Origin: Cyanophora paradoxa CCMP329
Lineage: Eukaryota > Plantae > Glaucophyta
Direction of reading: 5' to 3'
NCBI GenBank assembly: GCA_004431415.1
Contig: QPMI01000198.1
Location: 82,740-146,739 of the forward strand
Length of the DNA: 64,000 bases
Shown here piece by piece: positions 42,264-64,000 of this stretch. The notes under the pieces were generated by a model. That model was given only the letters and a program-made list of their open reading frames with translations. It was not told where the DNA came from and ran no database searches. Numbering within the stretch: the stretch's first letter is position 1; every line of letters starts with the position of its first letter. The translations under genes and the position numbers were made by a program.

Positions 42264-42744
42264 ATGGCGGAGGTCGAAGCACAGCGACGACTCTGGCTCC
42301 AGTCCGAGGCCGCCGCCGCCGCGTCGGGGCCCCGCGACCCCCGTGCGTCAGAATTCGTTGCGGATGTCTGATTCAATCTCTTAATGCTGTCGGTGCAGTC
42401 GGGTGGCGCGGCTCGCAGGCAGCGGCGGCAGGGGCGTGCTTTCGGGACAGAGGCACGGGCCTCCTACGCCGCTCCATCCTCACCTCGCTTGCAGCGCTCC
42501 GCGTGCGCTCATGTTGCGCGCTTTCGTCCCCGTCGGCTCACTCTTCGTTTTTCTCACAGGACTCGGATCCCGAGGCGTTGCGCGTCATCAGCCAGCACGG
42601 CCCTCAGGCGCTTCCCTGCCTCGCCGTGCACGGAAAGGTCGGCTGCCGTTCCAGTTCTGTCGACTGCACCCGCTGATGTGCGCGCAGAGGTTCCTCGACA
42701 TTGTGGCTGCGTATGTAGGCCAGTTTGAAGAAAGTAGGCCATGA
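42264..42744 (+). CDS. Small hypothetical spliced ORF or gene fragment
   Basis: ATG 42264 and plausible short introns join MAEVEAQRRLWLQ.., DSDPEALRVISQHG.. and RFLDIVAAYVGQFEESRP*. Confidence 0.3.
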
Positions 42745-42836
42745 GATAATTGTCGGCGGCGCTTCAGTAATGATCAGTGGCTGAGTGACTGATCATGGTC
42801 GTGTCTGGCCCGCAGCTTAAGGGGGCAGTTAAGCCT

Positions 42837-42925
42837 GGGGGGGGGGGGGGGGGGGGGGGGGGAGGAGGAGGAGGAGGAGAGGGGGGGGGGCCGGAGGGGG
42901 GGACTGCGGCCGGGGGGGCCGGGGG
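42837..42925 (+). repeat. Poly-G / (GGA)n tract with G-quadruplex potential
   Basis: About 26 consecutive G followed by (GGA)n and further G-runs. Confidence 0.8.
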
Positions 42926-43264
42926 AGCTTCAATTTGGGCTCGGCGGGGCCCATCACCATCGCGCCGCGGCGAGTCCGGGCCCGATCCACATGGCCGCTG
43001 CCGGCCGGGGGCGGGGTCCGGATCCTGGACTCGGGCCCGGGGGATTCGGAGATCTAGAGCCCTCGGAGCTTTGAATTTTGCACTGGCGATATCGATCATC
43101 GATATCCCGGAGTCCGATGCCCGGAGGCCGGGGCCATGATATCGATGGCCGCGGGCCCATCCTGGCAGGGCCATGGGCCAGGTTCAGCGGTCTTCAGACC
43201 GTCGGACTCTCAGAGTCTGCCAAGCTGACTCAGGCTCTAGATCGATATCTATAGCTACGTATAC

Positions 43265-44097
43265 ATCTTCAGATTCGCCGCGGCGCCGAGGTTAAATTCC
43301 CTTCCCCGGACCCAACTGACGCGCACGGCAAGTCAGTGGCCCTTTATTTCAAATCTTCATGATCAGAACCTTAGACTCAGTGTGACTCGGATCCGGAAGG
43401 CCTTGAAGCCTTGATCATGACCTAGGCCTTCATGATCATGATCATGATGCCAAGACTCGAGGATGATGCCACGGTCAGGGCTGGGCCATGATGATCATGC
43501 CATGGCCATGATGAACTTTCGGAAGGCCGGCCGGCGGGCCGCCGGGCTTCCGAAGTTCAAGGCTTCAGGCTTGGAACTCATCCCGGAGTCCGGGCCCTGC
43601 CACTGGGCCAGGCTGCTGATCATGATGTGCTGGCCATGGATCGCCGAGTCGTGATCCAATGTTCCGACCGTCGGACTCGGGCGACGATCGCGATCGCGAC
43701 TCGGCGAGTAGACCGATATCATCGCCGAGTCGGATCACTGTCAGGCCCTGACTCAGTGAGGCCCACCCGGTCACGGGTGACGGGAGGCAATTGCAACCTA
43801 CCAGGCCAGGCTCGGCCCTGGCCCAGTGGCAGGTTGAACCCCATCATGGCATGGTGCCACGGCGAACGTCGGACCTAGCCTCGGCTTAGCCTAGGCCTCA
43901 GGGCCTCGTCTAGGGCCCTAGGCCGGTCAGGACAAGCAGGGGGGCTCCGCCCCCCCGCACCCCCCCAGTGTTTTTTTGGGTTCTTTGATTTCTTGTGGTT
44001 TTTATTCTTCTTCTTATTATTATTAAAAGGGCCACTGACTTGCCGCGCGCGTCAGTTGGGTCCGGGGAAGGGCATTTAACCTCGGCGAATCCAAGAT
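43265..44097. mobile_element. MITE-like non-autonomous element bounded by 62-bp (to ~80-bp) inverted repeats
   Basis: 43284-43345 (CGCCGAGGTTAAATTCCCTTCCCCGGACCCAACTGACGCGCACGGCAAGTCAGTGGCCCTTT) is the reverse complement of 44026-44087 with 2 mismatches. The interior is non-coding and palindrome-rich. No clear TSD. Confidence 0.65.
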
Positions 44098-45309
44098 CTA
44101 GATGCGCGCATGCAGAGGGCAGCTGCAGGGAATTAAACTAGCGCTTAATTAAGCTTAAGAAGGCGCGCACACGGTGGCCGGGCGAGCCGCTGGGCCGGCT
44201 CCGGCTGAGGCTGGCCATGCCAGGCGAGCTCAGCGGCTGCAGCTGTCCTCGCGATCGAGGCGAGCTGTCCTCTTAGAGGTAGGCCTCATGATCGGGGCCT
44301 AGCGAGCTAGCTCTAGCTATGTAAGGCGCGGGCCTTGAGAAGGGGGAGGGAACCTTGTCTGGCCATGGACGTGCTCCAGCTCCTGCAGCTGCCAGGCTGC
44401 GCATGCCCCGTGGCCGTCGCGCGCGGAGGCGTGGCAGGTGCACGAGTGCATGCGCACGAGTGCGCATGTGCTGCGGGTGCACGTGCGTCACGGCGTGGCT
44501 ACATAGCTAGGGGCTGGCCGGCGCCTCGGCCTCCGCGCGATCTGGGCGCGGGCACGGGGACGCTGCTCAAGCTCACGTTCCGCTCAAAAAGCGGCGCAGC
44601 GGGCCAGCTCATGATCAGCGGCGCCGGCTGCATGCGCAGCGCTAGCAGGCATGCGCATCGCGCGCGCGCGGGGGCTCTGCGTCGCGCAGCACGCGCGCCG
44701 CGCTGGCATCGGCTTGTTGGAAGTGGCATAGCCCGCCAAGTGCGGCCGGCTTGCGGCCGGCTTGTGCAATTGCGTCGGGGCGCGGTTGGCGCGGGTGAAG
44801 CGTGCGCGGCTGGCGCGGCTAGCCGCTGAGCCACAGCAAGCTGCCGCGCGGGCGAGAGGCGTAACCATTGTTGAGCCGAGCCGAGCTGCGGCGCCCGGGG
44901 GAGAAAGCGGCCGGGGGTACTTTAAGAGGTTTTCTCAGGGTAAGTTCGCACTCTCCAATGTGATTGGCTAGCGCGCGCGGCGTCCTCCCACGCGACCGCG
45001 TTCGCGCCCGGCCTCGCTCTCGCAGTACGGAATGTCGAACATGATGCGCGCAACGACCTCGAACTGGTCTGGCCCGTATATCTGCTCCCTGTGCGTCGCT
45101 GGACCCATTTTTGTCCCGGGTGTTGGTGCCTGTTCCTGGATCACCCTTTGGTCGGACGGGACCGGGAGACATGGTTTCGGGGTCCCCTGGGGATGCGCTT
45201 TCAGGGTGTACCGCGCGGCCCCGGTTTTGCGGAGGTCGGGGAAATGGGATTTGGGGTAGGGTTGGACCCAAGGGACAGGGACAGGGGAAGTGTTTTACCC
45301 TTCCCCAAT

Positions 45310-46000
45310 TAATTAGAATAAAGAATGAGACTGAAGTACTAAAATTCTGAAGACAGAATAGAAGAAGCTGAACTGAACATAACTTAGTAAAGAACAGAAC
45401 AGATCTGAGTGCATGAAAGATGTAGAAATTAAACACTGATAATGTAATCATGAAACAATGCACATGCACCAAATGCAATGTATTCCAAAGCTAGGCTTCA
45501 TCATAGGTTGGATTTGTCATTCAGCACCACATTACAGTTTACAGAAACTGTCTCACCATGACGCCTACCATGAATCCTAGGATTGGCACTGAGGCACTTA
45601 CATCTTTGGAAAATAGGAACCGAAGCTTTGAGTGCTGGAGGAAGCAGTGAAGCTAGAACTACAGTAGAGAACAACAGCTGACAGGGATAAAGAGGGAGAG
45701 GAAGTGGGTGGGCAGAACACCGTGCTACTACTGGCCCCGATAAGGCCAGCCTGGTCTACCAGCGGGAGGATCACGCCTCCACCATAGCGAGTAGCTCCAG
45801 CGCGCGCCCAGTCCGCCCGCCTCCCGTCTCTCGATCCCAAGGCTGCTGCGCCCCGCTGCAGGTGCAACACCATCCTAAAAGAGGACCGGAAACCGGAGCT
45901 CGTGATCATGAGAGCCCGGGTGAAAACCGGTGGGCGCACAGCGCCGCCAGCCGCAGCCAGCGGTCTGTGCTCCTCGGCCGAGAGATACCTCCTCCAGTTG
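45310..46000 (+). pseudogene. Decayed, CpG-depleted coding relic of unknown origin
   Basis: A reading frame such as K*EPKL*VLEEAVKLELQ*RTTADRDKEGEEVGG..PPP*RVAP is interrupted only by TAG/TGA stops explicable as CAG/CGA C>T transitions. The region is AT-rich and CpG-poor relative to its flanks. Confidence 0.35.
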
Positions 46001-46713
46001 GCGCGCGCACACGCGCGTGGGGTCCGCTGCGGCGGGGGTTGGGAGGCCCCGGGCCGCCCGCCCGAGTGCTCAGAAGCACATCGCCTCGCCAGGAATCCAA
46101 GCATCTGTGCGGCCGCGACGCCCAAGGCCGCGACGCGGGCGTGCAATCACACGACCGACGATCATCTGCGCGGGCGCAACACAGGTCGCCGGCCCCATAG
46201 CCGCGGGCGGCCGATCGCTGCCGCAGAGCTAGGCTTCATCATTTATGTTTTGTCATGAAACATAGTGCTTTGCAATTGGTGATCATGATCATGATCAATA
46301 ATCATAGTGCATGCATCATGATCAATATATATATACACTGTGACAAATACCATCTAGAAAAGAATGTTGTTTATTTTGCGAGATAAAAAATTGCAAGTAC
46401 AAGCCCTTTTGCTTTTCTGTTTTGGAAATTTAGAGGGCCGACCGGCACCGCACCTCTTTTGCATCCGAGTGTTTCGTGCATGCACTAACTGCATTTGCGT
46501 GTTGGTGCGGCGCGAACCCAAATTATCGAGGTTGCCGCCTCCAGCCATTTCCATACATGGCCAAGTTTGGATTTTTTTTGTTGGCGCGGCAAGCTCGCTC
46601 ATGATGCAGCATTCAGAGGGGTATGCCCCCGTATGTACACTCGCGCGGCGGGCTCTGTTCCTGCTCCTGTCGCGCTGGGGGCGGGCAGGTCGCCGACGGC
46701 GTCCGGCACGCTT

Positions 46714-47681
46714 TCACTCGTCCGTCCCGCGGATCTTTTTGCGGAGCTGCATGTCCTTGGGCTGGATTGTGATGCTGCGCGCCCCCGGCGGTTATGTGCC
46801 CCTGTACGGGGCGCTACAGAGTTTTGGAGGGGGTGGAATATTAATGGGCGGCATATATACCGCTTGGCATGGATCGCGAGGAGGTTGCTCCCCTCGAACG
46901 TCTCGATGGCGTAACTGCGTCTCGACGATCAGTTGCAGAGGCGGCGTTCTATGAACTTGCAAATTTCGCGAACTGCTCAGTGGCCTCGCGGAGAGCGAGG
47001 ACGGCCTGCCGGCACCAGCGAAGAGCGGTGGTGTCGGTCAGCCTCGCCTCGCGAAGCTCCTTCAGGACATCCTCGGTGATCTCCTTGACGGTGCGGGTGA
47101 ATGGGGCGAGCGCAATGATGGGTTCGGTTCGCTTCTGCCACTTGCGAATCTCCCTGCGAGCGGTGGATTCACTGAGCCTCTGATAGTGTTTATTGCACTT
47201 GAGACAACATCAACGTACCGGAGGGCAACCGTGCCTCCGCAAAGGCGTGCGCGGTTATAAACAAATTTAAATCAGATAGAGAAACATTATGAATGATAGT
47301 CACTTCAAAAGGCTTTAAGATAGTAAGATCTAGAAAAAACGTTAATTTAGAAAAAACGTTAATTAAAATATAAGATCTAGAAATGATAGTTGAATTCCGA
47401 CTCGGCGAAGTTCGAAATCACTGACTAGAGTCACTTTAGTCACTTTAAAGTTAACCCTGCTATAGCGCTAGCTAGGCCTAGGTTCGCATACTGATCATGA
47501 ATAAATATAAAAGTGAACTCGGACCTGGACGGTAACGGTGTGGCTTCTTGACGCCTCCTGCTGCAGGAGCCGCTCGACGGGCCGCCTTTGATGCGAGCTT
47601 CCGCTCGCCCATGTTTGCGAATCGCTTCCGCGGGGCCTTGCCCCCCGTGCTCTTTTGCCCCGTGTGCTTTGTCCGTGCCAT
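46714..47681 (-). CDS. Divergent histone H3 variant, 155 aa (H3-like tail with K27R/S28A; cenH3-like histone fold)
   Basis: Exons 47681-47525, 47234-47219, 47153-46974, 46914-46861 and 46774-46714 splice in frame to [155 protein letters not shown]. All four introns are GT-AG; the intron 1 acceptor is a weak GAG. Confidence 0.9.
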
Positions 47682-47820: not shown

Positions 47821-49852
47821 TCAAGGGGCGTCGGACTCGGATTTCGAGCCGTCGGCGTCCGAGGCCCCGGGCCCGGCCGCCTTGATGCGAAAGACGTTCT
47901 TCGGCATGCGAACGAGCGGCTCGCCCTTGCTGTCGACGAGCTTCTTCACGCGCTCATCGAGCCGCTTCTCGATCTCCTCGAGCGCCGCGTCGTCGGCGCG
48001 CTGCAGGTTGGGAGAAAGGCGACAAAGTCCGCCGGGCTGACGCCGTCGCCCACCACGCGCGCGAGGCCCGGGAGGCGCTGCAGGACGCGGGCGCAGGCGG
48101 CCAGGTCCGAGTAGGCCTTGGCGCACACCGAGCGCTCCTCCAGGCGGAGGCCGCAGGCCTCGAGGATGTGGTTGTAGCGCGGCTCGACGCGGTCCCGCCG
48201 AAAGTAGCCCCAGCTGCGGGGTTCCGCCCGTTGGCCTCGACGTAGCGCTCGTACGCCCGAGGATGCCCGTCGAGGCGAGGAGGAGGCAGCGGATCCGCTC
48301 CCGCCCGCGTGCTGGGCCCGCAGGAGGAGGGCCCGCCGCGCCGCGGGGTCCCCGTCGAGCTGGATCCCGACGAGGGCGGCGTCGACGCCGCGCCGCAGCC
48401 CCCGCTCGAGCTCACGGAGGGAGAGAGTCCCCTCGCTCCTCTCCGAGACCGCCTCTTCCCCTCGCCGCCCTCGCCGCCACCGCTGCCGCCGCCGCCGCCG
48501 CCGCCGCCCTCGTGCTCCGCGTCCGCATCCGAGCCCGAGTCCGACGTCCCCTCGCCGTCCCGATCGCGATCGGCCGCCTCGAGCTGGGTCTCGAACTCGG
48601 CCCGCTTCTGCTCCTCCCACTCGTTCATCGGCCCGTCTTCGCCGGCGGGCTCGCCTCCGCCTCCACCGCCGCCGCCCGCGCCGGGGGCCTCGGTCTCCTC
48701 GCCCTCGCCCTCGCCCTCGCCCGCGCCCTCCTCGTCGTCCTCCTCGTCAAAGTCCTCGCGCTTGCACGTGTAGGCGTCGTAGAGGATGCGCTGCAGCTTC
48801 TCGCTTTCCCACGGCGGCCGCCGCTCCGACGAGGCGGGGCGGCGCTGCCGCTTGGCCGGCGGGCCCTTGGGCGCCTCGATGGCCAGCGGCGGCTCCTCGT
48901 CCTCGAGCTCGTCCTTGTCCTGGGCGGCGGCGGGGGCCATGCGCCTCGCGCGCGTCGCCCGGGCCGCGGCTGCCGGCGCCGGCGCCGGAGCTCCCTTGGC
49001 CGCCGACGCCGAGCTCCCCTCGGCCGCCGTCGAGGCCTGCGAGGCCCCGGCGCGCCCCGAGCGGCGGGGCGTCGACGCGTTCGAGTCGGTCCCGCCCTTG
49101 TGCGCGGCCGCGGGCTGGGCGGCCGCGGGGGAGCCCGCGGCAGTAGGCTCCTGGGAGGCAGACTCGGCCGCTGGCGCCGCCTGTCCCCTGGACGAAGAGG
49201 GCCCCGCCCCGCCGCTCGTCGGGGCGCGCGGCGGCACGAGGCAAGCGCGGCGAGCTGGATCGCGCGCGAGACGCCCTCGGCAGCCGTCCAGGACTCGGGG
49301 CGCTCGGCCTCGTGGACAAAGGCGCGGTAGGCGAGGTAGCCGTCGACGCGCGACGAGGGGACGAGGTGGAGAGGGTCGGGTGCGGCTCGCTGCACGCATT
49401 CTGGAGCATGGGGCACTCGACCTCGCCCTCTTCGTCTCCGGCCGCGCCCGTGGGCGCCAGAACCTGCGCAGAAGGGGACGTCGAGGGGGGCGGGGGGTAC
49501 GGTGGGGGTATGGGCGCGGGGCTGGCACCTTGGGAACGCAGGCGAGGCACACGAGGCCGTGGCGCTGGAGCAGGTGGCCCGTCGGCTCGTCGTTGAGGTC
49601 GATCGCGCGGTCGAGGTCGCCCCCGCCGGCGAGCTCGGCGATGCTCCTGGCCAGGCATGCCGGCACGTACGCCGGCGGGAGGAGCCGCTCCGCAGCGCAG
49701 ACGCTGCACCGGGGGCGCACGTCGAGCTCCAGCCAGGCCGAGATGTACTTGGGGCGGGCGATCCGCACGGGCCGCGCGTCGATCGGCGGGGCCCCCGACG
49801 CTGCCTCCTCCTGGGAGGACGCCGCCTGCTTGCCCTTGGCCTTGGCCCCCAT
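47821..49852 (-). CDS. RING-like zinc-finger protein with long acidic/Gly-rich disordered region; a few frameshifts
   Basis: ATG 49852 (MGAKAKGKQ..). CSVC..C..RHGLVCLACVPK, intron 49528-49464, VLAP..VECPM..C. NLS-like PPAKRQRR, acidic tract, and a helical C-terminus ending ..SESDAP* at 47821. Two to three single-base frameshifts are needed. Confidence 0.55.
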
Positions 49853-50164: not shown

Positions 50165-50960
50165 AAATCGGCCGGGCTCTGGTCGGGGAGGGGGGGGGAA
50201 GGGGGGAGGGGGGGAAGCGCGGCTAGGTGCGGGTCTTGCAAGGCGTACCCGGCCCTCTCGACTTGCCGGATTTCGAGAGCGGTTTCCGAAGTGGCTCCGT
50301 ACCCCTGACCATACGGTACATAGACCTGGAATCGGCCGAGCTCTGGTCGGGGGAGCTCGAGTAGGGGGGGTAGAGGGTGAGGCCGCAAGGGTACCAGACG
50401 GACAAGGTCGCAAAAGACGCCGTTCCCCACACCCTCGGCAGAGCGACCAGAGCTCGGCCGATTTCAGGCCTAGAAAGAGGGGGCAGAACGATCTGTACCC
50501 CTCTTTCGCCGCCGACCAGAGCTCGGCCGATTTCAGGCCTAGAAAGGGGGGCAGAACGATCTGTACCCTTCTTTCGCCGCCGACCAGAGCTCGGCCGATC
50601 CCAGGTCTAGAAGAGGGGGACAGAACGATCTCGGCCTTTATCTTGAGGCTGTACCCCCCGATCGCGTGGTGCATCTAGACCGGGGATTGGCCGAGCTCTG
50701 GTCAGTGCACGTGGTGGGGGGGGAATTCAAAGGGGTTATATATAGAGGGGAAGGGTTGAAGGAAACCGGTATACCCCCCTCCCCTCCCCTCCCCTCCCCC
50801 TCCCCCCCCCAAGGCCCGCAGACTGCAGAAGATCCAACCAGAGCTCGGCCGATTTCGCGACCAAATATAAAGGGGGCAAGGTTAAGAGAGCGCGTCAAAG
50901 ACCACTACCCCTCAGAATCACCACAACTAGACCTGGAATCGGCCGAGCTCTGGTCAGCGG
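50165..50960. repeat. Left array part A: dispersed copies of the CAGAGCTCGGCCGAT core, including a 68-69-bp tandem repeat x3 (50444-50636) with an internal hairpin
   Basis: Unit CGACCAGAGCTCGGCCGATTTCAGGCCTAGAAAGAGGGGGCAGAACGATCTGTACCCCTCTTTCGCCGC starts at 50444, 50513 and 50581; stem GAAAGAGGGG/CCCCTCTTTC. Further core copies in both orientations near 50168, 50331, 50686, 50838 and 50938. Confidence 0.9.
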
Positions 50961-50982
50961 GGGGAGAGGGGATCCCGCCCCC

Positions 50983-52100
50983 TAATCGGCCGAGCTCTGC
51001 GCAGGGACTGCTGCCGCCAGGGCTGCGCGGTGCCGGACGCTTCCTGATCCGTACCCCCGCCCGCTCCCCCCCCCTCCTCTTCCTCCCCCTGCACAGAGCT
51101 CGGCCGATCGCGGCTCTATGAGCGGCGGCGGCAGAGGTGCGTACCCCTCTCTGTCTACCTCGCCCCCTAATCGGCCGAGCTCTGCGCAGGGGGCCGCTGC
51201 CGCCGAGGGTAGGGCGATACCGGACGCTTCCTGATCCGTACCCCCGTCCGCTCCGCCCCTCTCCCCCTTGCCCCCCCTGCACAGAGCTCGGCCGATCGCG
51301 GCTCTATGAGCGGCGGCGGCAGCGGTGCGTACCCCTCTGTCCGTTTTTCGCCTCTCTCTCTCGTCCCGTAATCGGCCGAGCTCTGCGCAGGGGGCCGCTG
51401 CCGCCGAGGGTAGGGCGATACCGGACGCTTCCTGATCCGTACCCCCGTCCGCTCCGCCCCTCTCCCCCTTGCCCCCCCTGCACAGAGCTCGGCCGATCGC
51501 GGCTCTATGAGCGGCGGCGGCAGCGGTGCGTACCCCTCTGTCTGTTCTCGCCCTCGCTCTCGTCCCGTAATCGGCCGAGCTCTGCGCAGGGGGCCGCTGC
51601 CGCCGAGGGTAGGGCGATGCCGGACGCTTCCTGATCCGTACCCCGCCCGCTCCGCCCCTCTCCCCCTTGCCCCCCTTGCACAGAGCTCGGCCGATCGCGG
51701 CTCTATGAGCGGCGTCGGGAGAGTGCGTACCCCTCTGCTTAGTTCTCGCGCCCTTTGTCCCGTAAATCGGCCGAGCTCTGCGCAGGGGGCCGCTGCCGCC
51801 GAGGGTAGGGCGATGCCGGACGCTTCCTGATCCGTACCCCCGCCCGCTCCGCCCTCCCCCTCTTTCTCCCCCTGCACAGAGCTCGGCCGATAGCGGCTCT
51901 ATGATCGGCGGCCGCACAGGTGCGTACCCCTCTGCCTGTTCTCGCCCTCTCTCTCGCCCCGTAATCGGCCGAGCTCTGCGCAGGGGGCCGCTGCCGCCGA
52001 GGGTAGGGCGATACCGGACGCTCACCTTGATCCGTACCCCCGTCCGCTCCGCCCCCCCCCCCTTGCCCCCCTGCACAGAGCTCGGCCGATCGCGGCTCTA
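50983..52100. repeat. Left array part B: six tandem ~185-201-bp units, each containing a 23-bp inverted repeat
   Basis: Units start at 50983, 51168, 51369, 51568, 51763 and 51962. Each has ATCGGCCGAGCTCTGCGCAGGGG ... CCCCTGCACAGAGCTCGGCCGAT around a conserved spacer. Confidence 0.95.
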
Positions 52101-52453
52101 CGAGGCGACGGCGGCAGGGTTCGAAAATCCCCCAGGCACCTCGCAACCGCATGTCGATTGTTTGAAAGAGAAAAAAAACATTCTTGATCACGAAAATGCC
52201 CTCACGCGCGCTCTGGGGCCGGCGCCGGCGCCGCGCGCGCCAAACTGCAGCGACCCCACTCGAGAGCCCCGCGTGCATTGAGCCTGTACGTCCACTAGCT
52301 CGAGCTGGCTCCCACGGTTATGCGTAAAGCCGGAAACGAGAGCACGCGCGCGTGCGCGCGTCTCGGTTCGATTCTCAGTCCCACACCGCACATGTACACG
52401 TGCACAAAAAACTCCACGCACTTTTGATGCGCTCGGCACAATATACTCTCTGC

Positions 52454-53022
52454 TCACGAGATCGCCGACAGAACATTGCCGGCGGCGGCGCGAATCTTGC
52501 CGGTGCGGAGCATCGTGAGGAAAAGGGGGACCATCCCGAGGACGACGCGCTCGTACAGGTCCAGGTGCAAAATGTCGACTCCCTGGCACGACAGCAGCTC
52601 GAACCAGAGCTCCACGGGAAAGACGACGTACGCCAGATCTAGATCGGAGGAGGTGGCCAGCGGGCCCTGGGCGGCGCGTGCGCGCGGGGCCAAGATCGCG
52701 TCGACGCGGTCCGCAAAGGCGCGCCCGAGCACGTTCTCGAGTTGGACGAGACCCTCCGAATACTTTTTGGCGCTCGCCGCGAACAGGCCCGTCACGATGG
52801 GGAGGATGCGCTCCGCGGTCGGCCGGAGCGTCTGGAGCGCGTCGTCCGTCTCGCGCGCGGGACCTTGCCGCCCTTGGCCTTGGTCGCGAGGGCGACGATG
52901 TCGCTGTCGTAGAGGTTGCGGTCCTCGTCGTCGTAGTTGTAGTGGATAAAGTCGCTGACCAGCTCTCCCATGTCGATCAGGACGCTGCGACGAGGGTGCT
53001 GGCAGGGCTGGGCGGCGGCCAT
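52454..53022 (-). CDS. Intronless orphan helical protein, ~190 aa (one frameshift near 52860)
   Basis: MAAAQPCQHPRRSVLIDMGELVSDFIHYNYDDEDRNLY.. continues after a frame change into ..TAERILPIVTGLFAASAKKYSEGLVQLENVL..VFPVELWFELL..NVLSAIS*. Confidence 0.55.
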
Positions 53023-53470
53023 ACTTGAGCTTGTTCTCGGTTCTTGACGATGTGAAAGAATGGCCGCATCGCGCACCTGCTCGTCGTTTTGGGAGACCAG
53101 AGGACCCTTTTGTTTGAATCGGGCCCCTCTACATTGCTGCGCTCAACCAACTCGGTGCGCCAGAGGGTACCCCTCGCCCCCACCCGCCGCCCCCCATGGC
53201 CAGCCCCGCTCACTTGGGGCCCCGCGGCCGTCCATCTGCCCTCGCCCGCCCCGGCCCCGCGCCCCCGGCCCACCGTGGCGCAAAGGAGCACGCAAAACAA
53301 ACTTGGATTAATCGCATGTACATGTGAACCACAGAAGACACTATATAGCTATCATAGTACTAGTATCGATATCGAACGAGAAGACTCTGAGAATCGGCGG
53401 CGCGGGAGAAAAACGCACACGAGAGTGCACGGTGCGCCGCTCAGCGCTAGCGGGTCACACGTGCAGCGTA

Positions 53471-55281
53471 CTATACGGTAGGCTGCGAGTCGCCGGGGAA
53501 GAACGTGAGCGTGTAGTTGTGCCGTTCGCCTTCGACGGTGCAGTAGCGGTCGCGCAGCCACTCGCAGGTCGGCTTAAACGTGTTGTGCTGCAGATGGGTG
53601 CTGATCGACGCCGCAAACGGGCCGCCCTGACCCGTCAGCCTCCCGATCTCCGACCACTGGATGTACCGGACGACGCTGAACGGCGCGGGGGCGTCCTGGT
53701 CCTCTCCGAACGCGAGCGCCGCCACGCCGTGCAGTCCGACGGCTCCCAGCGGGCGGATGGAGCGCGCGTCCAGCAGGCCGCTGGCCACGGGTACCTCGAA
53801 ATACTCCAGGTCGCGGGCGTAGGGCGTCACGGAGACGAGAAAGGGGCGATCGACGCCGGTTCCTTCGAACTCGAACTGGCCGGCGGCCTGGTAGATGAAG
53901 TTCCAGTCGCCGACGGGCGTGACGCAGCCGTACGACTTGCCCTCGCAGGGCATGTGCAGCTCGATCATGGTGGGGCGACCAGCGCCGCTGCCAGCGAGGT
54001 AGTACATGTACATGGACGCGCTCCGGATGCTGCCCACGTTCCGAGCCGCGTGGAGGAGCCAGTTCTCGCCCAGACCGACGGCAAAGGCCTCTGCGGGCTC
54101 GGCGCCGCAGACGATCCACCAGCCCTGGCGCGCAGCGCCGCCCGAGAGCCGCACCGATGCGATGAACTCGACAAAGGCCTCCTCGCGGGCGGCGGGTTCG
54201 TCGACGCTGGAATCGTCCTCCATCATGTCGACTTCGTCCGCACCGCCCATCTCCATACCGCTGCGCAACACCTTGACCCGCACCAGCACGGCGTTGCCGC
54301 GCGCGTTCCACGTCAGGCTCGCGTCGCACTCGTGCAGGGGCACGTCGCTCCAGTCGCCGAGGGCCGAGGGGTCCCCGGAGCCGTCCACCTCGGCGAGCTC
54401 GTGGGAGAGCCGCGCGCGCGCCGCTGTCGAGTGCAGGGGGCCGGCGTCGGCCGCGGGCGCCGCGGCGGCGCCCTCTGCAGACTCGCCAGAGCCCACGAAG
54501 CGGACGAGGACGCGGCCGCCCGCGGAGCCGCCGTCGCCGGCGACGCTGCAGATCGCGACGCGCGAGGCGTCGGGAGAGGGGCGGCACGCCACCACGCCGG
54601 CGACCGCCGCGCCGACGTCGACGGTCGAGACGCCGCCGTCGGCGGACCAGACGAGCCAGCCGCGCTCGCCGCCGAGCACGATCGTCCCGTCGCCGGCAAT
54701 GGAGACGGAACCGCGAGCAAAGTCGCGGATGGGGAACCCGGCCGGGATCTGCAGGGCGTCGCCGAACCCGCCCGGCCCGTAGCGGACGATGGCGCCTCGC
54801 GGGGCGAGGTCCTCGGCCGCCGCCGCCGCCGCCGCCGGGGGAAGAGGATGCACACCCAGCGGCCCTCGCTCCCGGGCTCTGTCGGGAGGGCAAAGGTCGC
54901 GTCGAGGCCGCCGAGGCGCGACGGGATCGGGATCTCCGCCCCGCGACCGCGCCCCGCGATGAGACGGAGGCGGGCGCCGCGCGACGCGCCGGGCCCTCCG
55001 AGCAGCAGGGCGAGCGCGTCGTCGACGGCGAGGGCGTCGAACCAGCCGCTGGAGACGTCCGAGGTGCCGATCGCAAAGGAGCGGGACTGCTGGCACACGG
55101 TGAGCATCTTGAGGCGGTCCTCGCGCCCGAGGTAGTTCAGGATCGCCTCGGACAGGTCGGCCGGGAGGGATTCCATCCGTTTGCAGAACTCGCTCTCCGC
55201 GGCGCCGTGGACAAAGGGTTTCTCGACGAGGCGGGGCGCGCCGGCAGCGGTCATCGTGGCGAGGTTTGCGTTGGTGGCCAT
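53471..55281 (-). CDS. Intronless F-box protein with C-terminal beta-propeller-like domain, ~600 aa (one frameshift near 54840)
   Basis: F-box pattern MESLPADLSEAILNYLGREDRLKMLTVCQQSR in ORF 54313-55281. Beta-strand blades (VSIAGDGTIVLG, CRPSPDASRVAIC, LTWNARGNAVLV) in ORF 53471-55096. Confidence 0.7.
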
Positions 55282-55489
55282 CGTCGCCGTAGAGTCCAGT
55301 TAATGTTCGTGACCTGCGAAAGAGGAGGAGAAGAGAGTGAGCGCAGCGGCGCGGGCGAGGCTTTTATCGACGCCGAGGCCCGATTCGAGCGAAAGAGCGG
55401 CGGGCAAAAAAAAACCAAGTCGGGAGAAAGCAAAAACGCAGCGGCGCGCTTTCAAAGGACTCGGCGAGGCCGCGCATCGAATTTCGCAT

Positions 55490-58400
55490 TCACGCAGGGG
55501 GAGCGGGGGTAGGTGCCGGGGCGGGGCGGGGGGGAAGGGCCAAGAGGGGTACGCCAAAGTGCTGAAAGGTGGAGCGGGGTACGAAGAGGAGCATCTTCGC
55601 CCCGCACGAGCGCGGCCCGCGGGCGACGCGCGGGCGCGCGAGGTCCTCGGGCAGGAGCCGCGCCGCGCCGTCCACGAAGAGGCTGATGCCCGAGGTGTCG
55701 GAGCCCGTGCGCGCCACGTCGATTCCGGACGAGGGAGCGTGCGGCGCTCCTGGGGAGGTCCCGCGCAAAGATCGACGTGTACGCAAACCCGACGCAGGGT
55801 CCGGCCCCTCCCGCCCCTCCACGATGGGGCACCACTCCGAGGCGCGCTGGGCGGGGCGCCGGCGGCCTCGGCGAGGCGGCAGAGGAGCCAGGTCGCGTCC
55901 TCGGTGGGGAGGGCGGGAGACTCCTCCGCGGCGGGGAAGCCGAGGCCATCCCGCGCCGCCCCGTCGTCCATCGCGAGGGCGGCGCGCGCCAGGTCCGCGC
56001 GCAGAGCGCCGCGACGTCGGGTCGGCGCCGGCGCCGAGGGCGGCGCGATCGGGGCGAGGGCCTCGGGGGCCTCGGAGGCGGCGGCGCGCGCCAGGACCTC
56101 TGCGTAGGGCGACGCGCGGGAGGCCCCGTCCCCTCCTCCTCCCCGTCGCCGGCCCCGCGCCAGCAGCGGGCGGCGTCCTCGCCGAGGACCGCGCGCGCCG
56201 CCTGCGAGAAGAAGACCGCCGAGTGCACGCCCGACTTGAGGAGCCGGAAGACGCGCTGCGCCGCGTCGCTCGGGCGGGGGCGGGCCCCCGCCTCTGCCGG
56301 CGCGCCCGGGGCGCCACCCTCGCCGCCCTCGCCGCCGCCGCCGCCCGCGCCCGCCGCCCGGAGCTTGGACTTTGGATCCTGGACGAGCGCGATCTGGAGG
56401 AGCGCACGCCGGCCGCCAGGAGCGCCCCGAGCGTCGCGTCGGGCGGGACGTCCCGCGGCCGTCCCGATCGCGCCCGTAGAGGCGCAGGCCGAGGAGGACG
56501 GTCTCGGGTCGAAGCAGTAGCGCGTGCGCTTGACGGTCCTGCGCGCGCCGCCCCGCACCACGCGCCGCGCGTCGGCCGCCGCGACGAGCACGCCGAGGCC
56601 CAGCTGCTCCGCGGCGTGGACGACGAGGTCGTGCAGGAGGCGCCGCGCGCAGTCCCCGATCGGGGAGGGGCGGCCCCCTTGTTGCGCTTCTCCGGGCGGA
56701 GGCACTCGAGCTGCAGAGCTCGGCGCACTGCCAGCGGAGGCGTCGGCGCGGTACGCGGCGATCGCGAGTAGGGATCGCGATCCGCTCCCACGCCGCGCGG
56801 CAGGCGTCCGCAAAGAGCCGCCCGAGGGGCCCGTCGGTAAAGATGCCACCCTCCTCGATCGCCTCGCCGAGCCCGCGCAGGCGCGCCGCGCCGCAGTCCT
56901 CCGGCCCCTCCCACGTCGCCCAGAAGAGGTAACGGAGGCCGCCGCGACGTCGCTCGCCGCCGCCGCCGCGCCGCCGCCGGGCGGGACGCGCGCGCCGAGC
57001 AGCTCAAAGAGCCGCAGGGCGCTCTCAAAGGGGCGGCGCCGCTCGCGGTGGTCCGGGAGGAGCGTCGCGCTCTCCTCGTCGGGGGCCGCCCCGAGGCGAG
57101 GTACGGGAGGGTGTCGAGGGCGAACCGCTTGGAGAGGCGGAAGATCTCCGCCGCGGGCTCTGCTCCGAGAGGCGGACCTCGGCGACGCCCACCTGCTCGG
57201 GCCGCAGCCCGAAGCGCGCGGCGGCCTTTTCGCGCTTCCAGGCGCGCCGCGCCGCGTCGGAGACCTCCACCGTGGACGTCCCGTACTCCATGGCCCCCGG
57301 ATCGCCTTGGCGCAGTCGTAGCCCAGCAGCCGCGGCGCGGCGACGATGGGGAGGAGCCGCTCGCGCGCCTCGACCTCGGCCGCCAGGGGACGGCAGAGTC
57401 CGAGTACCCCTCCGGCATCCAGGGAGGCCCCCCGCCGCCGGCGCCGCCGGCGCGCTCGGCCCGCGCGCGCGCCGCCCTTGGGCTTCTTCGGGGGCTGGGC
57501 AGGGGGTACACGTAGAGGCCCTCGTTGCCGAGCGAGCGGAGCTTCAGGTGAAACGCCAGCATGGGGCACGCGTGCGTCGCGTTCCGGAGCGCCGTGCGGA
57601 CGGCCCGCACGCGGAGGTAGTGCTCCTCGGTCGCCACGCGCCTCTCCGCGGGGAGCCGCTCGTTCCACGCGCGCACCGAGTCCACCAGCTCGCCGTAGAT
57701 CGCCCGCCAGTCGACGGGGGCGTGCAGGGGCCGCCCCTGCCGGTCGGGGAGGGGGCCTTGCGGGGAACCGGCAGAAGAAAAAGGCGTCGGGCCCGATCAC
57801 GTGACGGCGGCGGCGGACGAGCTGAAAGCCGGCGTTGACGTCGGCGGTCCGCCCCTCCTCGATGTAGGCGACAAAGTTGGCGGCGGCCCGCTGGAAAAGT
57901 CGGTGCCCTGGGCATCGCGTAGTTGGAAGCGTAGCAGAGGGCGGAGCAGACGTAGTCCGAGTCCGTCATCGTCTGCCTCGCGCGCCGGTCCGCGTCGGCG
58001 TACAGGAACTCGCAGCGGCGCCCGGAGAGCCGCATGTGGCGCCGCACGATGGACTCGATCTCCCAGAGGGCGCGCCGCGTCGAGCAGGCGATGTAGCCGA
58101 CCTCGCCGGCGAGGAGCTTGGCGGCGATCACGGCGGCGGCGTAGCGAATGTCGATGGCCGTCCAGCGCAGGCGCGCGTCGTTGCTGCCGCGCTTGAGGTA
58201 CGAGATGACGTCGCCCCCGGGCGGCGCGCGGCGTAGAGGGCGGCGTCCTCGTCCAGCAGGTCGGCGTCGGCGACGATCACGAGCGCCGGCGCCTCCAGCG
58301 CCCTGTCGAACCAGGCGACCGTCTGCGCGTGGTGCTCGGGCCCCTTGAACGGCCCGCCCGTCGTGAGGGTCGTGAGGGCCCGCGCCCCTCGTCGACGATG

Positions 58401-61400
58401 ACGACGTCAAAGTCGCCCTCGAGCCGGCGGCCGCTCTGCACCGTGCACATGACGAACGAGGCGTCGGCGAGCTCCTCGGGGCGGGCCTCCTTGTAGACGG
58501 TCCAGGCGACCGGCACGCGCTCGCCCGACGCCGAGGGGTAGGAGAGGGCCGCGAAGCGGGGGTCCTTGACGAGGATGTCGGGCTGAACTCGCCCCGCCGT
58601 CACGTAGAGGACGCGGGGCGGCGCGCCGGGGACGCTGGGGAGCCCACGAGCGTCGGGTCGTCCAGCACCGCCTGCAGGATCCCCGGGGGCCCGGCCCCGC
58701 CGCGCCCTCGCGGCCCCCCACGCACGTCTCCGTCTTGCCGCTCCGGTCTCTGCCCGCACAAAGATCGTCTTCCTCCGCCGTCGAGGCGCGCGAGGATGGG
58801 GGCCGGCTGCAGAAGCGCTGGGCCCCGGGCCCGCCGGCTCGTCGATGTCGATCCAGCGTCGGGCGACGGGATCAAAGTCCGCCGGGATCGCGAGGGGCCG
58901 GGAGAGCTCGGGAGGCGGAGGGCAGCGCGCCACGTCGCGAGGTCCGGCAGCATGGCGCGCAGCCGCGCCGCCGGCCCGCCGGTCGCGCCGTCCTCGAGGG
59001 GAAAGGAGCCGGGGCCCGACGCCGCGGGCCGGACGCGCCGCTCGGGCCGCCGTCGGAGGGAGCGCCGCGCGGCGCCGAGCGTGCGCAGCCACGCGACGAC
59101 GGCATCGAGGTAGTCGACGGCGCCCTGAGGGAGCTCCGCCCAGTACGGGTTGCGGGCCGTCGCGCCAAAGGTGCCGGCGCCCATGGACTTGGCCTGCTCG
59201 GGGAAGAGCCGGAGGGAGAACATGTCCACCTCGTCCTCGCGAGGCGGAGCTCGGTCGCGTCGTCCTCGCCGAGCTCCAGCGGCCCGCAGGCCAGCGCCCG
59301 CCGCACGCCGCCGCGCCGCACGCCCGGACGCGCACCTGACCGCGCTCCTCGCCTCCCCGCTCGTCTGGTCGATGAAGAGCTTCCCTTGCGGTGACCGCAG
59401 CTCCAGCAGGGACGCGGACAAAGTAGGAGCGGCCTCGACGTGCGAGGCGACGCGGACGGGGGGCAGCGCCCCGCCGGCCGCTGCGGGAGGGCGGGGGCGG
59501 CCGGCGCCGGCGCCGCCCGCGCGCACCGTCCTGGGGCCCGTCCCCCTGCCCCCTCCCCCTCTGCCGCCGCCGCTGCCGCCTGCGCCTCTGCCGCCGCCGC
59601 CGCCGCCGCCGCGCGCGCGAGCCTCTCCGCGAGCTGGAGGCTCCGGTCGGCGATGCGGGCGACGGTGGCGTGGAGCCCCAGGAGCGCCGCGTCGGCCTGG
59701 GCGAGGGTCGAGGCGCCGCCAAAGGCGCCCGGCTGGGCCCACGCGAGGGCGCCCAGGAGCGGCTCGCCGGCGCAGCGGAGCGAGTAGCAGTGCGCCGTCG
59801 CGGCGAGGACGCCGGGGATGCGCTCTCCGCCACCCACATGCTCGTCTCCACGCGCTCGTGGTCCGGCCGTGGGGGCAGAGCTCGCCCCCGTCCGCGTCGG
59901 GCGGCGAAACAAAGTGGGAGATCGAGGGGCCGCCGCGGCCGCGCGGCCGCGGCGGGGGCGGCGCTCCAGCCCCGCCCGCGCCCGCCCCGCACGCGAGGAG
60001 CCCGAGCGCTCCACCACGCCCTCGCTGATCGTCGCCTCGTCCTCGGCGTCCCGTCCTCCGCATTCCCGCCCTCCTCCTCCTCCTCCTCTTCTCGCCCTCC
60101 GATCGAGCGTCGGCGGCGCCGGGGGCCCGGGGGGCGCGCGGGGCTTGGGCGGCGGAGGCGGGCGCCGTCCGCGGGGCCGCCACGTGGAGGGTGTGCTTGG
60201 GGCGATCTCGCGCGCGAGCTCGCGCAGCCAGCGCCACTCGTCGCTGTTCCACGCGACGAGGAGCGGGTCGGGCCGCGTGGCGTGCAGGCGGACGTCGCCG
60301 CGATCGCCGCGTCGTCGACGGCCTCCAGGGGTACCGCCACGGGGTAGTAGGAGGTCCAGCGTGGCGGTGCTCGTCGGAGCGGCAGCGCTGTTGACGCGGA
60401 ACGGCGCGAGGTCCAGGACGCCCTCCTTTCCAGCTGCTCCACCATCGCCCGATCCCGCGCTCCTCCGCAAACGGGACGACGACGCGCTCAAAGCCTCGCG
60501 CCCCTCCACCGTCCCGCCTTGTACATGCCGGGGACGCGCCGCGGCCAGCGGCGCGCGTGGCCTTGGACCAGAAGGAGCGGCGGAGGCGGCTCTTCTCCCC
60601 TGCGGGACCGACGGTCGCGCAGCGCCGCCGCCGAGTCCTCCTCGAGCCGCTTGAGCTTGGCGCGCACGATGCCCACCACTGGTCGAGGTCCTCCTTGGCG
60701 TACACGGCGGCGCCGGGCCCCTCGACCGCCGCGACGAGGTCGGCGTCGCGCACGTAGACGTGGAAGCCCTTAAGGCCGAGAAGACGACGAGGACGGCGAC
60801 GCCGCGCGCCTGGAGGGCCGGGCAAAGTCGCGCGCGCGGCGGGCGACGCCGAGGATCTCGGGACCTCGGTCCAGTAACTGGGCGAGGGTCTCGCACCGCG
60901 CCAGCACGCCGGCGAGGTACTCTTTCTTGGCGTTCTTCAGCTGCTCCCTCCGAGCGAGCCGCCCTCCAGCGCCTCGGGGAAGCGGATGTTGGGGACGTCA
61001 AAGTCAAAGACGTTGAACGCGCGGAGGGTGCGCCGGCGCCGCCCGCGTGCTCGACGAGGATCTGGGGCGAGATCTGGACGACGGCGCGGCGCGCGACCGG
61101 CGACTCGAGCCTCTCCACGTCGGCGGGCTGCAGGGGACGGCAAAGATCGCGTCGCGCGCGGCGCCCTTGCGCGGGTTGCTCTTGACGAGGACCGTGGTCC
61201 GCACGATCTGGTTCGCGGCGGGGGCGGGAGGGGCGCGCCGAGGGCGGCGCGGTCGCGCCCGCCGGCGCCTTGTCCTCCATCTCGAGGTCGCCCTCTGCAT
61301 CGGCGCCGGCGCCTCCTTGGGCGGCAGCGGCACCGCCGGCGGTGCCGCCCCTCGCGCTTGGCCTGCGCCGCGGCGGCGCACGGCGGCACCGCCTGCGGTG

Positions 61401-61522
61401 CCGCCCCCTCGCGCTTGATCGTGACTTGTGCGCTGCGTTGCACGGTGGCACGCCGGCGGTGCTACTCCGGTTCGGTCGCCGGTGGGACCCTCGGACGCAT
61501 CGTGGTCCGCCGGGCGTTTCAT
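55490..61522 (-). CDS. AEP primase-polymerase + UL52-type Zn finger + herpes UL9/OBP-like SF2 helicase fusion, ~2000 aa, intronless, many single-base frameshifts (pseudogene or assembly error)
   Basis: AEP motif I AFNVFDFDV (~60995-61020), motif II VVFS/GLKGFHVYV (~60750-60790) and possible motif III GVLDLAPF (~60400-60430). Zn finger LCPHGR/DH...HCYSLRC (~59770-59880). Walker A TIFVRAETG/SGKTE (~58725-58770), RVLYVT, VMCTVQS, Walker B FDVVIVDE (~58388-58412), UL9-like LVIVADADL, YIACST. Confidence 0.8.
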
Positions 61523-62149
61523 CGTGCAGTCGAGACTGACGCCCCGACCGATGGCGCCTTCTTTTATGGTTGGAGCGCCGCCGGCCGCGAGTCGCTCGAT
61601 TCGGTCCGTTGGGCCGAATCGGCGAGAGGGGAGGGGATGGAGGGGGGTGGGGTGGGGGGGGGGGAAGGGGCAAGAGCGAGGCGGGGCAAGGGAGATTTCA
61701 ATCTCTTGCATTCGCACACAACACATGTACAACTACAATGAGTTTCACATCGCCAACATCTCTCCGACTAGATACTACTGAGGATCGTCGCATGCTGTGT
61801 TTTAGAAACGATGCAAAATGAACGAAAGGTTCGAGGGTTTTCGTATCTAGCTAGCTTGCCGCCCCAGTAGGTTGGGCTACTGGCTCTCCCTCCCGTCGCC
61901 GCCGCCGTCGCTCCCGTGATGGTGTCGTGTCCTCCAATCCCGTCCTCTGGGGATGGCGTGAGGGAAGGGGCAGAGCGTAGAGGGAAGGAGGAGAGAAGGG
62001 AGGGATTGGGGGTAGCGGGCAAGGTGAGGGAGGGGGTACGGGGGAGGGGGAGGTCAAACGGCTAAATACCCCCGGGAATTCTCTAGGAGTAGAGGGGTGC
62101 CCCCACACCGGCCCGGCTCCCCCCGTACCCCCGCCAGCACCCTCTGGCA

Positions 62150-62775
62150 ATGGCCTCTGCCGCTGCGCCCGCGCCGAGCGCACCTACGACCTCGGACGGT
62201 GGAAGTATCTGGACGGCACGCCTACGACGACCGCCCGGGGCGTGATCGCCGCGCCGCTCGCCAGCTCGGCGTCAAGTCCAGCCGCATCGGTGAGCGAGAT
62301 CGTCGGGCGCCCGGCCGGGGGCGACCCGCACCGCGACCCTCTGCCCCGCCCGCGCCGGCGCCTGGGCGCCTACGAGGCGGTCGGCCGCGCCGCCCACGTC
62401 GCCTGGACGTGCACGAGCAACCTGTGGCGCCCCGCCGCGCGCGCGCGCTCGACGACCGACGCGCCGGTGCGCGCGTCTGCTCCAGCTCCCGTGCCGCCGA
62501 CGCGCCTCGGGTGCGGGCACGTCTTCTGCCTCGGCTGCCTCCTCCCGATCGCGCCGCTCGGTGCCCCCTCTGCCGCGCCGACCCGGGCTCGAGATCGTGC
62601 CGATCCGCCGGCGGCGCACCGGCGCCTCTACGAGGCGGTCGCGAGGCCTACGCGGCGCGGCTCGCCGAGGCCGCCGCGGGGCTGGACCCGGCCCTCCCGC
62701 GGGCCCTCTGCGCGCGCTTCGTCGATCCCGCTGGCTCTCCCCGCCCGATCGAGACGGCGCCGCGCGAGCGCGTGA
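62150..62775 (+). CDS. RING-HC (C3HC4) finger protein, intronless, frameshifted; 3' end uncertain
   Basis: C..C, then PTRLGCGHVFCLGCL and ARCPLCRA (62470-62580). ATG 62150; divergent from the primase-helicase gene. Confidence 0.65.
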
Positions 62776-62965
62776 GCCGGCGCGCGCCGCGCCTCGCGCC
62801 TTGCCCTTGTATGTGTGTGTATATATACGTACCCTGTGGCCTGCGCAGGGCGTTATATAACATATATATATCTCGTACCGAATTTGAATTGTATTTGAAT
62901 TATATTAGAGGGGGGACGCGTACCCGGGATCGGTGCGGTTTTTTTTTCCTTGCGCGCTCGTCGCT

Positions 62966-63830
62966 GTGCCCTTGAGGTTGCGGTAGCCCCCTTTCTCCAC
63001 ATAGAAGCGGGAAATGGCCGAGCTCTGCGCGGGGGGGGAGTGTGAAAAAGGGGGTACGGTAGCCGACGAACAAGGTGCGGGGGGGGAGGGGGTGGAAGAG
63101 GAGGGGAGAGGGGGCAAGACGAACAAAGGGGCGGACCGAGACGCCTTGCCGCCGCTCTACCCCCTAGACTCCTCCCCCCTGCACAGAGCTCGTCCGATTA
63201 CCGGCAATGCGGGGAGCGGGACGGGGAGGGTGTGAAAAGGGGGTACGGTAGCCGACGAGAGGGTGCGGGGGGGTGAAGAGGGGGGGAGAGAGGGGGCAAG
63301 ACGAACAACAGGGCGGGACCGAGACGCCCTTGCCGCCGCTCTACCCCTTGACCTCCTCCCCCTGCACAGAGCTCGTCCGATTACCGGGCAATGCGGGAGC
63401 GGACGGGGGAGTGTGAAAAGGGGTACGTGAAAGAGGGGGGAGATGGGGGCAGACGAACAAAAGGGCGGACCGAGACGCCTTGCCCGCCGCTCTACCCCCC
63501 TGGACCTCCTCCCCCCTGCACAGAGCTCGTCCGATTACCGGGCAATGCGGGCGGGACGGGGGCGCGTACCGGCCGACGCCGTGCACGGAGGTACTGCTTC
63601 CGGATCGACTCGCTCACCTACCTCTCGCCGTGCCCTTGAGGTCGCGGTACCCCCCTTCTCCACATAGAAGCGGGAAATGGCCGAGCTCTGTGCGGGGGGA
63701 GAGTGTGAAAATGGGGTACGGTAGCCAACGAGAGGGTGCGGGGGGGGTGAAAGAGGGGGGTGAGGGGGGCAAGACGAACAAAGGGGCGGGACCGAGACGC
63801 CTTGCCCGCCGCTCTACCCCCCCTAGACCT
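62966..63830. repeat. Right array: ~155-185-bp tandem units within a ~664-bp higher-order repeat, sharing the left-array core
   Basis: CCCCTGCACAGAGCTCGTCCGATTACCG at about 63177, 63360 and 63514. GTGCCCTTGAGGT..CACATAGAAGCGGGAAATGGCCGAGCTCTG at 62966 and 63630. GACGAACAAAGGGGCGGACCGAGACGCCTTG occurs x4. Confidence 0.9.
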
Positions 63831-64000
63831 CCTCCGCGGGCGGGGGCGCGTACCCCCGCAGCACCCGGGGCAGCCGCGCCACCCCCCCGTGCACGCCTGC
63901 GCAGCCGAGGGGGGTAGGCCCGCGCCGACGAGGCGCCGAACAGATGAAGGCGTCTCCGGCTCTGCAAAATTAGTTGAATCGGTACGGCGCGGCGGGTGGA

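Follow-up and report, generated by a model that had tools for sequence, protein, structure and literature searches.

A multi-copy, virus-type replication cassette between arrays of a candidate origin motif in Cyanophora paradoxa, an alga of the glaucophytes

The DNA analysed here (the window: 64,000 nucleotides, positions 82,740 to 146,739 of contig QPMI01000198.1, assembly GCA_004431415.1) stems from the glaucophyte Cyanophora paradoxa CCMP329 and contains at 50165..63830 a cassette of four genes situated between two tandem repeat arrays. Read from the left, these genes code for an orphan protein, an F-box-like protein, a large protein that combines an AEP primase with a UL9-like superfamily 2 (SF2) helicase, and a RING-finger protein, the first three on the minus strand and the last on the plus strand. 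The cassette is a real multi-copy replication module of virus type, and it possesses a well-defined candidate origin motif.

This motif is a box of 15 bases (CAGAGCTCGKCCGAT), for which the 64 kb contain 23 matches at no more than one mismatch (shuffled sequences: mean 0.05, maximum 1): 20 within 50167-52090, 3 within 63184-63535, and none in 1-50166. Two further boxes with 2 mismatches, at 63013 and 63676, complete the right array and bring the overall number to 25. The outer part of the left array (50167..50952) holds 8 boxes in mixed orientation and a unit of 68 bp repeated 2.7 times; the inner part (50985..52117) holds 12 boxes in six units of about 200 bp (Tandem Repeats Finder [TRF] period 201, 91% matches). 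Every inner unit has a pair of inverted boxes, separated by about 97 bp, and contains GTACCCC twice; box orientation alternates along the inner part, the boxes mostly forming inverted pairs. In the right array (62987..63850), units of about 150-185 bp (TRF period 183, 86% matches) carry 5 boxes, three forward with T and two reverse, and GGGGTAC is present in every unit. The units of the two arrays differ, yet up to 28 bp around the box are common to both. An earlier note on this DNA, made from the sequence alone, had described two arrays on one core that bracket the cassette, which agrees with the finding of boxes in these two arrays only; the abundant satellite that it had named as a counter-possibility appears unlikely within the window, the 50 kb flank being free of boxes.

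The second motif, GTACCCC, is found 39 times versus 4.8 expected, its density being 7.0 and 5.7 per kb within the two arrays versus 0.17 per kb in 1-46700, and is present upstream of the cassette genes as well. For one left unit, the predicted fold is a long hairpin (z -3.7, none of 200 shuffles as good), which results from the inversion of the boxes and hence is not independent evidence; for the right array, the fold has a z of -2.3, with 3 of 200 shuffles as good. AT-rich patches are confined to the inner edges of the arrays. The suggestion that the arrays are terminal repeats was rejected: their outer ends share no repeat of more than 10 exact bases, although the true right end of the element may fall beyond the window, and inverted matches between the left and the right array are only box-sized (38 nt, 74-76%). 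Elsewhere, the 15-mer gave 32 single matches and no arrays in viral contigs, a 24-mer gave 0 matches in metagenomes, and both Rfam matches were below threshold.

The primase-helicase gene (55490..61522, minus strand) codes for about 2000 amino acids (aa) and was compared with two protein models, P0004 (1919 aa, the copy on tig00021045) and P0002 (1338 aa, without the N-terminus). The protein begins with the AEP primase, followed by an acidic linker, a C-H-C-C zinc finger, a second cysteine cluster, the UL9-like SF2 helicase, and a C-terminal region of about 700 aa. The AEP motifs VFDFD, FSGLKGFH, and VLDL (i.e., DxD, SGxKGxH, and the third acidic residue) are present in this order in P0004 and in the window frames. 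The zinc finger reads CPH..H..HC..C, its first half being taken from the window frames since the model skips that part. Walker A (GSGKT / GCGKT) and VIVDE can be recognised, and the SF2 motifs (Walker A, IVDE, xDAD, and later motifs) are UL9-like in the wording generally given for such helicases. In the Atlas, the helicase core matches a Herpes_ori_bp cluster first (0.96, with 195 of 256 features; 48% of the members carry the family), and the N-terminal part matches unnamed phage clusters (0.95) and primase clusters (0.91-0.92). Profile matches are weak: DNA_primase_S and LigD_Prim-Pol at E 0.09, and CyRepA1 at E 0.08, far below the family cut-off. The designation as AEP plus UL9-like helicase, with the zinc finger in between as the earlier note had read it, is therefore to be understood as an assignment from motifs and language-model similarity. 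Kinesin matches in a sequence search of the PDB reflect P-loop similarity only, and P0003 was dropped as an unrelated repeat protein. Pfam returned no match for the frameshifted helicase pieces, nor did a word-indexed protein search for a piece of 105 aa. A profile-free search with a piece of 102 aa yielded two close proteins, each bearing the name of a C. paradoxa gene model. A search with the helicase core matched three Cyanophora models only, among 7992 candidates of 735-2342 aa, and no relatives were found in viral contigs (where one search counted one match without a locus), metagenome contigs, plasmids, or phages.

In the assembly, about 70 frame switches are found along the helicase gene when it is compared with P0004, 96% of which is covered in exact 7-mers, and 54 of 66 small offsets consist of one base missing in the window. 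Short-read contigs differ from the 10.8 kb at 52150-62950 in about 180 indel rows; the eight X1 pieces listed for the cassette (X1 being one of the DNA runs) exhibit 0-5 substitutions and 2-29 gaps, whereas four of the five X1 pieces listed for 30300-43937 do not differ from the window. Since the short-read contigs and the near-identical copy on tig00021045 lack the frameshifts, these look like assembly errors, i.e., polishing errors of a multi-copy region, and real decay was rejected as their cause. The assembly is reported to be built from PacBio reads and the genome to be probably haploid (PMC6704402).

The orphan gene (52454..53022, minus strand, 189 aa) is intronless and contains one assembly frameshift; an identical model, tig00021045_g17659, maps without a jump, and the protein has no Pfam, PHROG, or NCBIfam match. 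The F-box-like gene (53471..55281, minus strand, 603 aa) is likewise intronless, and an identical model from another contig maps without a jump. Its match to the Pfam F-box (E 0.005-0.012) is below the cut-off; the protein is predicted to be a substrate adaptor of a ubiquitin ligase. The RING-finger gene (62150..62775, end approximate, plus strand) is transcribed away from the helicase; it is frameshifted, with a partial match to zf-RING_UBOX (E 0.0002), also below the cut-off. The helicase gene is probably intronless. Thus, the four intronless genes reported earlier are confirmed for the orphan and the F-box-like gene and probable for the helicase, but in this assembly neither the helicase nor the RING-finger gene is an open frame, and the earlier labels F-box/propeller and RING correspond to sub-threshold matches (E 0.005 and 0.0002).

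Between the helicase and RING-finger genes, a short palindrome (61588..61626; at joints of one contig, depth 149 / 105) is situated upstream of the helicase start. It is retained as a block in a diverged copy and is likely a promoter element; one diverged contig retains short blocks between the starts of the two genes. The adjacent short repeat at 61666..61811 has a contig depth of 3800-12000 versus about 95 for host DNA and is an insertion of a high-copy host repeat outside the cassette core. This repeat is abundant in one RNA run as well and is skipped in a diverged copy.

Concerning copy number, single-copy host contigs have a depth of 91-102 in run X1 and of 48-61 in run X8, and the eight cassette pieces listed per run reach 2.9-5.4 times (X1) and 3.3-6.0 times (X8) host depth, to which diverged variant contigs add another 1.5-2.9 times, contig depth not being equal to copy number. 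Protein model P0001 is covered to 99.9% by exact 7-mers of the window frames; since, in addition, the genes beside it agree with the three gene numbers that precede this model, the window most likely corresponds to tig00000849. Models of the helicase exist on three contigs (tig00000849_g4787, tig00021045_g17657, tig00000540_g1925) and five models of the F-box-like gene on four (g4786, g17658, g17653, g1926, tig00021583_g22655), together with two of the orphan (g4785, g17659); these counts are lower bounds, about 8000 candidates having been scored within set lengths. Helicase and F-box-like gene are consecutive on all three helicase contigs, and the orphan is next in line on two of the three, so that the order helicase-F-box(-orphan) is kept. 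The copies are of different age and exhibit three levels of divergence: identical, 87% identity in the F-box-like protein, and 42% in that protein with 78% in the helicase core. This last pair of values, for the oldest copy, would be expected with continuing selection on the motor; conservation peaks at 88-94% in the helicase motor, and the catalytic motifs are intact in two copies. The two F-box copies of tig00021045 lie at a distance of five gene numbers, as would fit a dimer in inverted or direct orientation, with three gene models between helicase g17657 and the next F-box copy g17653. The nine differences listed for the diverged F-box copy at 53635-53726 match amino-acid changes of protein model P0006; in this small sample, most of them change residues. 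Depth and gene models exclude the cassette as a single-copy host gene, the other outcome by which the earlier note's proposal of a non-host multi-copy element might have failed, and the depth check proposed there gave 2.9-6.0 times host depth over both runs.

Two runs (X15, X17) are guessed to be RNA; their contigs, which give neither strand nor level, have a low depth over those parts of the cassette that they cover. Host introns measure 48-69 nt, according to the 12 RNA skips listed in 30359-33904. Within the cassette, a skip of 51 nt at 54236..54286 over the F-box-like gene (contigs of both runs) and one of 53 nt at 60917..60969 over the primase domain (one X17 contig, depth 2.1) both read GT..AG on the plus strand, opposite to the two genes, which points to antisense transcription.

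Immediately to the left of the cassette, outside the coordinates of the earlier note, lie two further multi-copy genes, both with introns. The first one is a RING-like zinc-finger gene (47821..49852, minus strand, about 650 aa) with one GT-AG intron of 65 nt (49525-49461); the same jump of 65 nt is found in all three other models. Its four models lie on four contigs, two of which also bear the F-box-like gene, and its depth is 2.9-4.3 times that of the host. The label derives from the cysteine spacing, without a family match.

The second one, a divergent histone H3 gene (46714..47681, minus strand, 155 aa; Pfam Histone E 1.5e-9), has five exons, which join without an internal stop, and four GT-AG introns; its depth is 2.5-2.8 times host depth, and a diverged variant contig covers it at 47029-47108. 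In one bin, RNA contigs do not cover the gene, an observation to which no weight is given. An interpretation as an intronless viral fragment is ruled out by the five exons. The tail is of canonical type with K27R, S28A, and an insertion of 8 aa, and aligns with H3 (E 3e-12), i.e., it differs from the unalignable tail expected of CENH3. The fold domain exhibits a long loop 1 and CENH3-type substitutions, with Cse4/Cnp1 as narrowly best matches (34 vs 33 bits). These substitutions agree with characters by which CENH3 is recognised: the lack of Q68, W in place of F84, and a change at T107. No function is claimed for K27R because H3K27me3 is reported to be inconclusive in this alga (PMC5405695). 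Both genes, situated outside the arrays, are possible cargo.

To the left of H3 follow high-copy repeats and then expressed, intron-rich host genes; the cassette is integrated beside host genes. The left 50 kb yielded nothing but repeats and host genes (Myb, thioredoxin reductase, RING, Tubby) in a scan of 150 of 257 frames, from which the 105 frames richest in R, A, G, and P and two others were left out. High-copy host repeats at 42878-46187 reach a depth of 1700-12800. An insertion of about 740 bp (45490-46228) with a flanking duplication of about 15 bp resembles a short interspersed or a truncated long interspersed nuclear element and has no Rfam match; its end (46054-46228) is present in many copies, with an RNA contig depth of up to about 115,000. 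A host gene at 42263-42830 seems to be truncated at the point where nested repeats and a G-rich run set in, and the entire block starting at about 42830 possibly represents a cluster of insertions. Further to the left, a GC-rich coiled-coil gene is covered at 35672-36534 by a contig of single-copy depth that differs at 32 places, with clean flanks, and a long expressed host gene (25430-34470, minus strand; RNA contigs of 8.3-9.6 kb, many introns, 48-56% GC) has no Pfam match in the frames scanned and probably codes for a large surface protein.

Taken together, the window likely holds one chromosomal copy of a cassette family of virus origin that is low-copy in Cyanophora paradoxa. We tentatively favour, as a call that comes close to even, the reading that the cassette with its arrays at 50165..63830 is a member of a family of integrated replicons derived from a virus, with an initiator predicted to bind the arrays. 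One primase-helicase protein would bind the repeated 15-base boxes and then unwind and prime the DNA there; by analogy to UL9/OriS of herpes simplex virus (HSV) and to the plasmid protein CyRepA1, its C-terminal region may recognise the inverted box pairs, with the SF2 motor opening the DNA and the AEP domain priming. Host polymerases would elongate, such that the element would need neither a capsid nor a polymerase of its own. The products (circles or concatemers) might return to the chromosomes via recombination or repair, a route suggested because no integrase was seen. The F-box and RING proteins could retune host ubiquitin ligases, and captured cargo may be represented by the H3 variant and by the RING-like gene with its intron. 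While the protein type is already known, the element itself appears to be new, and the autonomy of its replication is a prediction. In its most far-reaching form, the proposal would be a capsid-less eukaryotic replicon of about 14-18 kb in algal chromosomes, which copies itself by one virus-type primase-origin-binding helicase on its own box arrays, gives rise to dimers and new insertions without a transposase, and carries parts of ubiquitin ligases, along with a K27R H3 variant bearing centromeric-type features, by which it influences its own chromatin or its segregation; in this full form, we regard it as rather unlikely.

Several points weigh against a self-contained replicon. Depth ratios are alike in the two DNA runs X1 and X8, so no amplification is seen there, and neither a terminal repeat nor a target-site duplication nor an integrase was found in the window. 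The outer array ends share at most 10 exact bases, and the spacers between the boxes have 66-75% GC. The window stops 150 bp past the right array, and capsid genes may follow; the argument for a small unit depends on the gene numbers of an error-prone annotation. RNA over two cassette genes is spliced on the antisense strand. Concerning the protein, Pfam PF02399 gave no match at E<=1 (P0001, P0002) or E<=5 (P0004), for which reason it is called UL9-like and not a member of PF02399, and by inspection the UL9 motif RVKNL is absent from P0002 and P0004. Both AlphaFold structure models have low confidence (pLDDT 41 and 33); the single-sequence fold model of the AEP part (pLDDT 41), a superfamily with an RRM-like palm, had no Foldseek match, a fold search that is uninformative with a model of such confidence. 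Box binding and replication are predictions.

Alternatively, the cassette could belong to a larger endogenous DNA virus (a mriyavirus of the yaravirus group, an ariadnavirus-like or another nucleocytovirus) as its replication end, with the structural genes beyond the window or deleted and the arrays as interspersed origin or enhancer repeats, like the homologous regions (hrs) of baculoviruses. We consider this possible, with the balance leaning against it. Large DNA viruses commonly carry genes for F-box, RING, and histone proteins. Intact fusions of AEP and UL9-like SF2 helicase are reported for a subset of Yaraviridae, mimivirus R8, pF1055L of African swine fever virus (ASFV), and ostreid herpesvirus 1 (OsHV-1) (PMC11253617), as well as for SmDNAV (10.64898/2026.08.29.747986). 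The earlier note had suggested a likeness to nucleocytoviruses (NCLDV) or mirusviruses; the closest described carriers of this architecture in the literature found are yaravirus-group mriyaviruses, SmDNAV, mimivirus R8, and ASFV pF1055L. For a glaucophyte assembly, regions related to mriyaviruses are reported (10.1101/2025.04.19.649669), and for C. paradoxa giant-virus insertions (PMC12344493) and 366 capsid-gene matches (PMC10120064, supplement). Homologous regions (PMC4535591) would be consistent with two arrays at a distance of 11 kb that have one core and different units.

However, no hallmark gene of such a virus is seen in the window, as the earlier note had also remarked: the cassette proteins and the 150 scanned flank frames show no capsid, packaging ATPase, VLTF3, RuvC, or HUH gene, although Pfam can miss these and the window ends at the right array. 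With the same right limit, the frames scanned contain no pPolB, SF3 primase-helicase, rve, or tyrosine integrase. Furthermore, the three-gene gap on tig00021045 leaves no space for a genome of 35-45 kb on that side, none of the six capsid-bearing contigs among the representative rows of the PMC10120064 supplement matches the six contigs found here (tig00000849, 21045, 540, 21583, 21046, and 21338), and no relative was found in the viral contigs or metagenomes searched. Concerning earlier descriptions, none of this cassette was found in the full-text literature, where supplements of viral-insertion papers could hold one; tig00000849 was not found there either, and the contig names are absent from one supplement of PMC12344493.

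Less probable still, an old cluster of viral genes might have gained copies passively, through segmental duplication within DNA rich in repeats, the arrays being promoter or enhancer repeats or local satellites without a role in replication. The block does lie among the high-copy host repeats, the intron-bearing genes have a like depth (the RING-like gene occurring also on two contigs on which no cassette gene was found), GTACCCC stands upstream of the cassette genes too, and depth is stable between runs; yet gene order is the same at three levels of divergence, and the intact catalytic motifs in two copies and the conservation peak in the helicase motor speak against it, such that we hold it to be improbable. 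Finally, an artefact of assembly, in the copies or in the junction with host genes, or a contaminant is very improbable: polishing is poor and no listed short-read contig runs from single-copy host DNA into the cassette, but 0.67-0.68 of the sampled words are found in each of 14 DNA runs that share a species label, depth stays at a constant few-fold of that of the host, and the diverged copies are present as separate contigs and gene models.

Should the arrays truly be the limits of the unit, it would be a nuclear element of eukaryotes that uses replication to spread and has no transposase, HUH nuclease, polymerase, or capsid; as part of a virus, it would represent a lineage of glaucophyte viruses for which no relative was found in the collections searched. 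AEP-UL9-like proteins are predicted replication initiators of giant viruses and mriyaviruses, and no origin was defined for them in the literature found. With a candidate initiator and a sharply defined box of 15 bp together in a cultured alga, binding and origin activity become directly testable.

Compared to known systems, the element resembles Polinton-like viruses and transpovirons as small integrated or capsid-less DNA elements with a helicase in protists or viruses; in contrast to Polinton-like viruses, no terminal inverted repeats, pPolB, capsid, or integrase are seen in the window, and transpovirons use an SF1 helicase. With baculovirus hrs, which act as origins and enhancers, it has in common several intergenic arrays of palindrome-bearing repeats (PMC4535591). 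Unlike in baculoviruses, no baculovirus genes are found in the window. The hr-binding protein IE1 is unrelated to the primase-helicase.

The architecture of the protein, with an N-terminal AEP and a C-terminal UL9-like SF2 helicase, is equally described for SF2_hel of Yaraviridae, mimivirus R8, ASFV pF1055L, OsHV-1 (PMC11253617), and SmDNAV (10.64898/2026.08.29.747986). Mriyaviruses and ariadnaviruses have no DNA polymerase nearby, as is the case among the frames scanned here. The described carriers of the architecture are capsid-encoding viruses with a major capsid protein, a packaging ATPase, and VLTFs, and mriyaviruses also have an HUH nuclease, whereas none of these is seen here. Mriyaviricetes have one of three primase-helicase types and lack a DNA polymerase, and the SF2_hel-type architecture agrees with this; the likeness to that class lies at the level of architecture. 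No tree could be built, as no relative at the sequence level was found outside Cyanophora.

UL9 of HSV-1 binds inverted boxes through its C-terminal domain, and OriS, like the arrays, contains inversely oriented boxes able to form a hairpin (PMC12543377), the motor here being UL9-like. OriS has three boxes and an AT-rich spacer (PMC12543377), whereas here 25 boxes in tandem units are separated by GC-rich spacers and RVKNL is lacking; HSV-1 UL9 has no active primase, while the AEP motifs are intact here. CyRepA1 (Slr7037), a bacterial plasmid protein of 958 aa, differs in that the element described here is nuclear and integrated; the likeness, accompanied by the weak profile match, consists in one primase-helicase on a capsid-less replicon, CyRepA1 being reported as required for the autonomous replication of the cyanobacterial plasmid pSYSA (PMC9978351).

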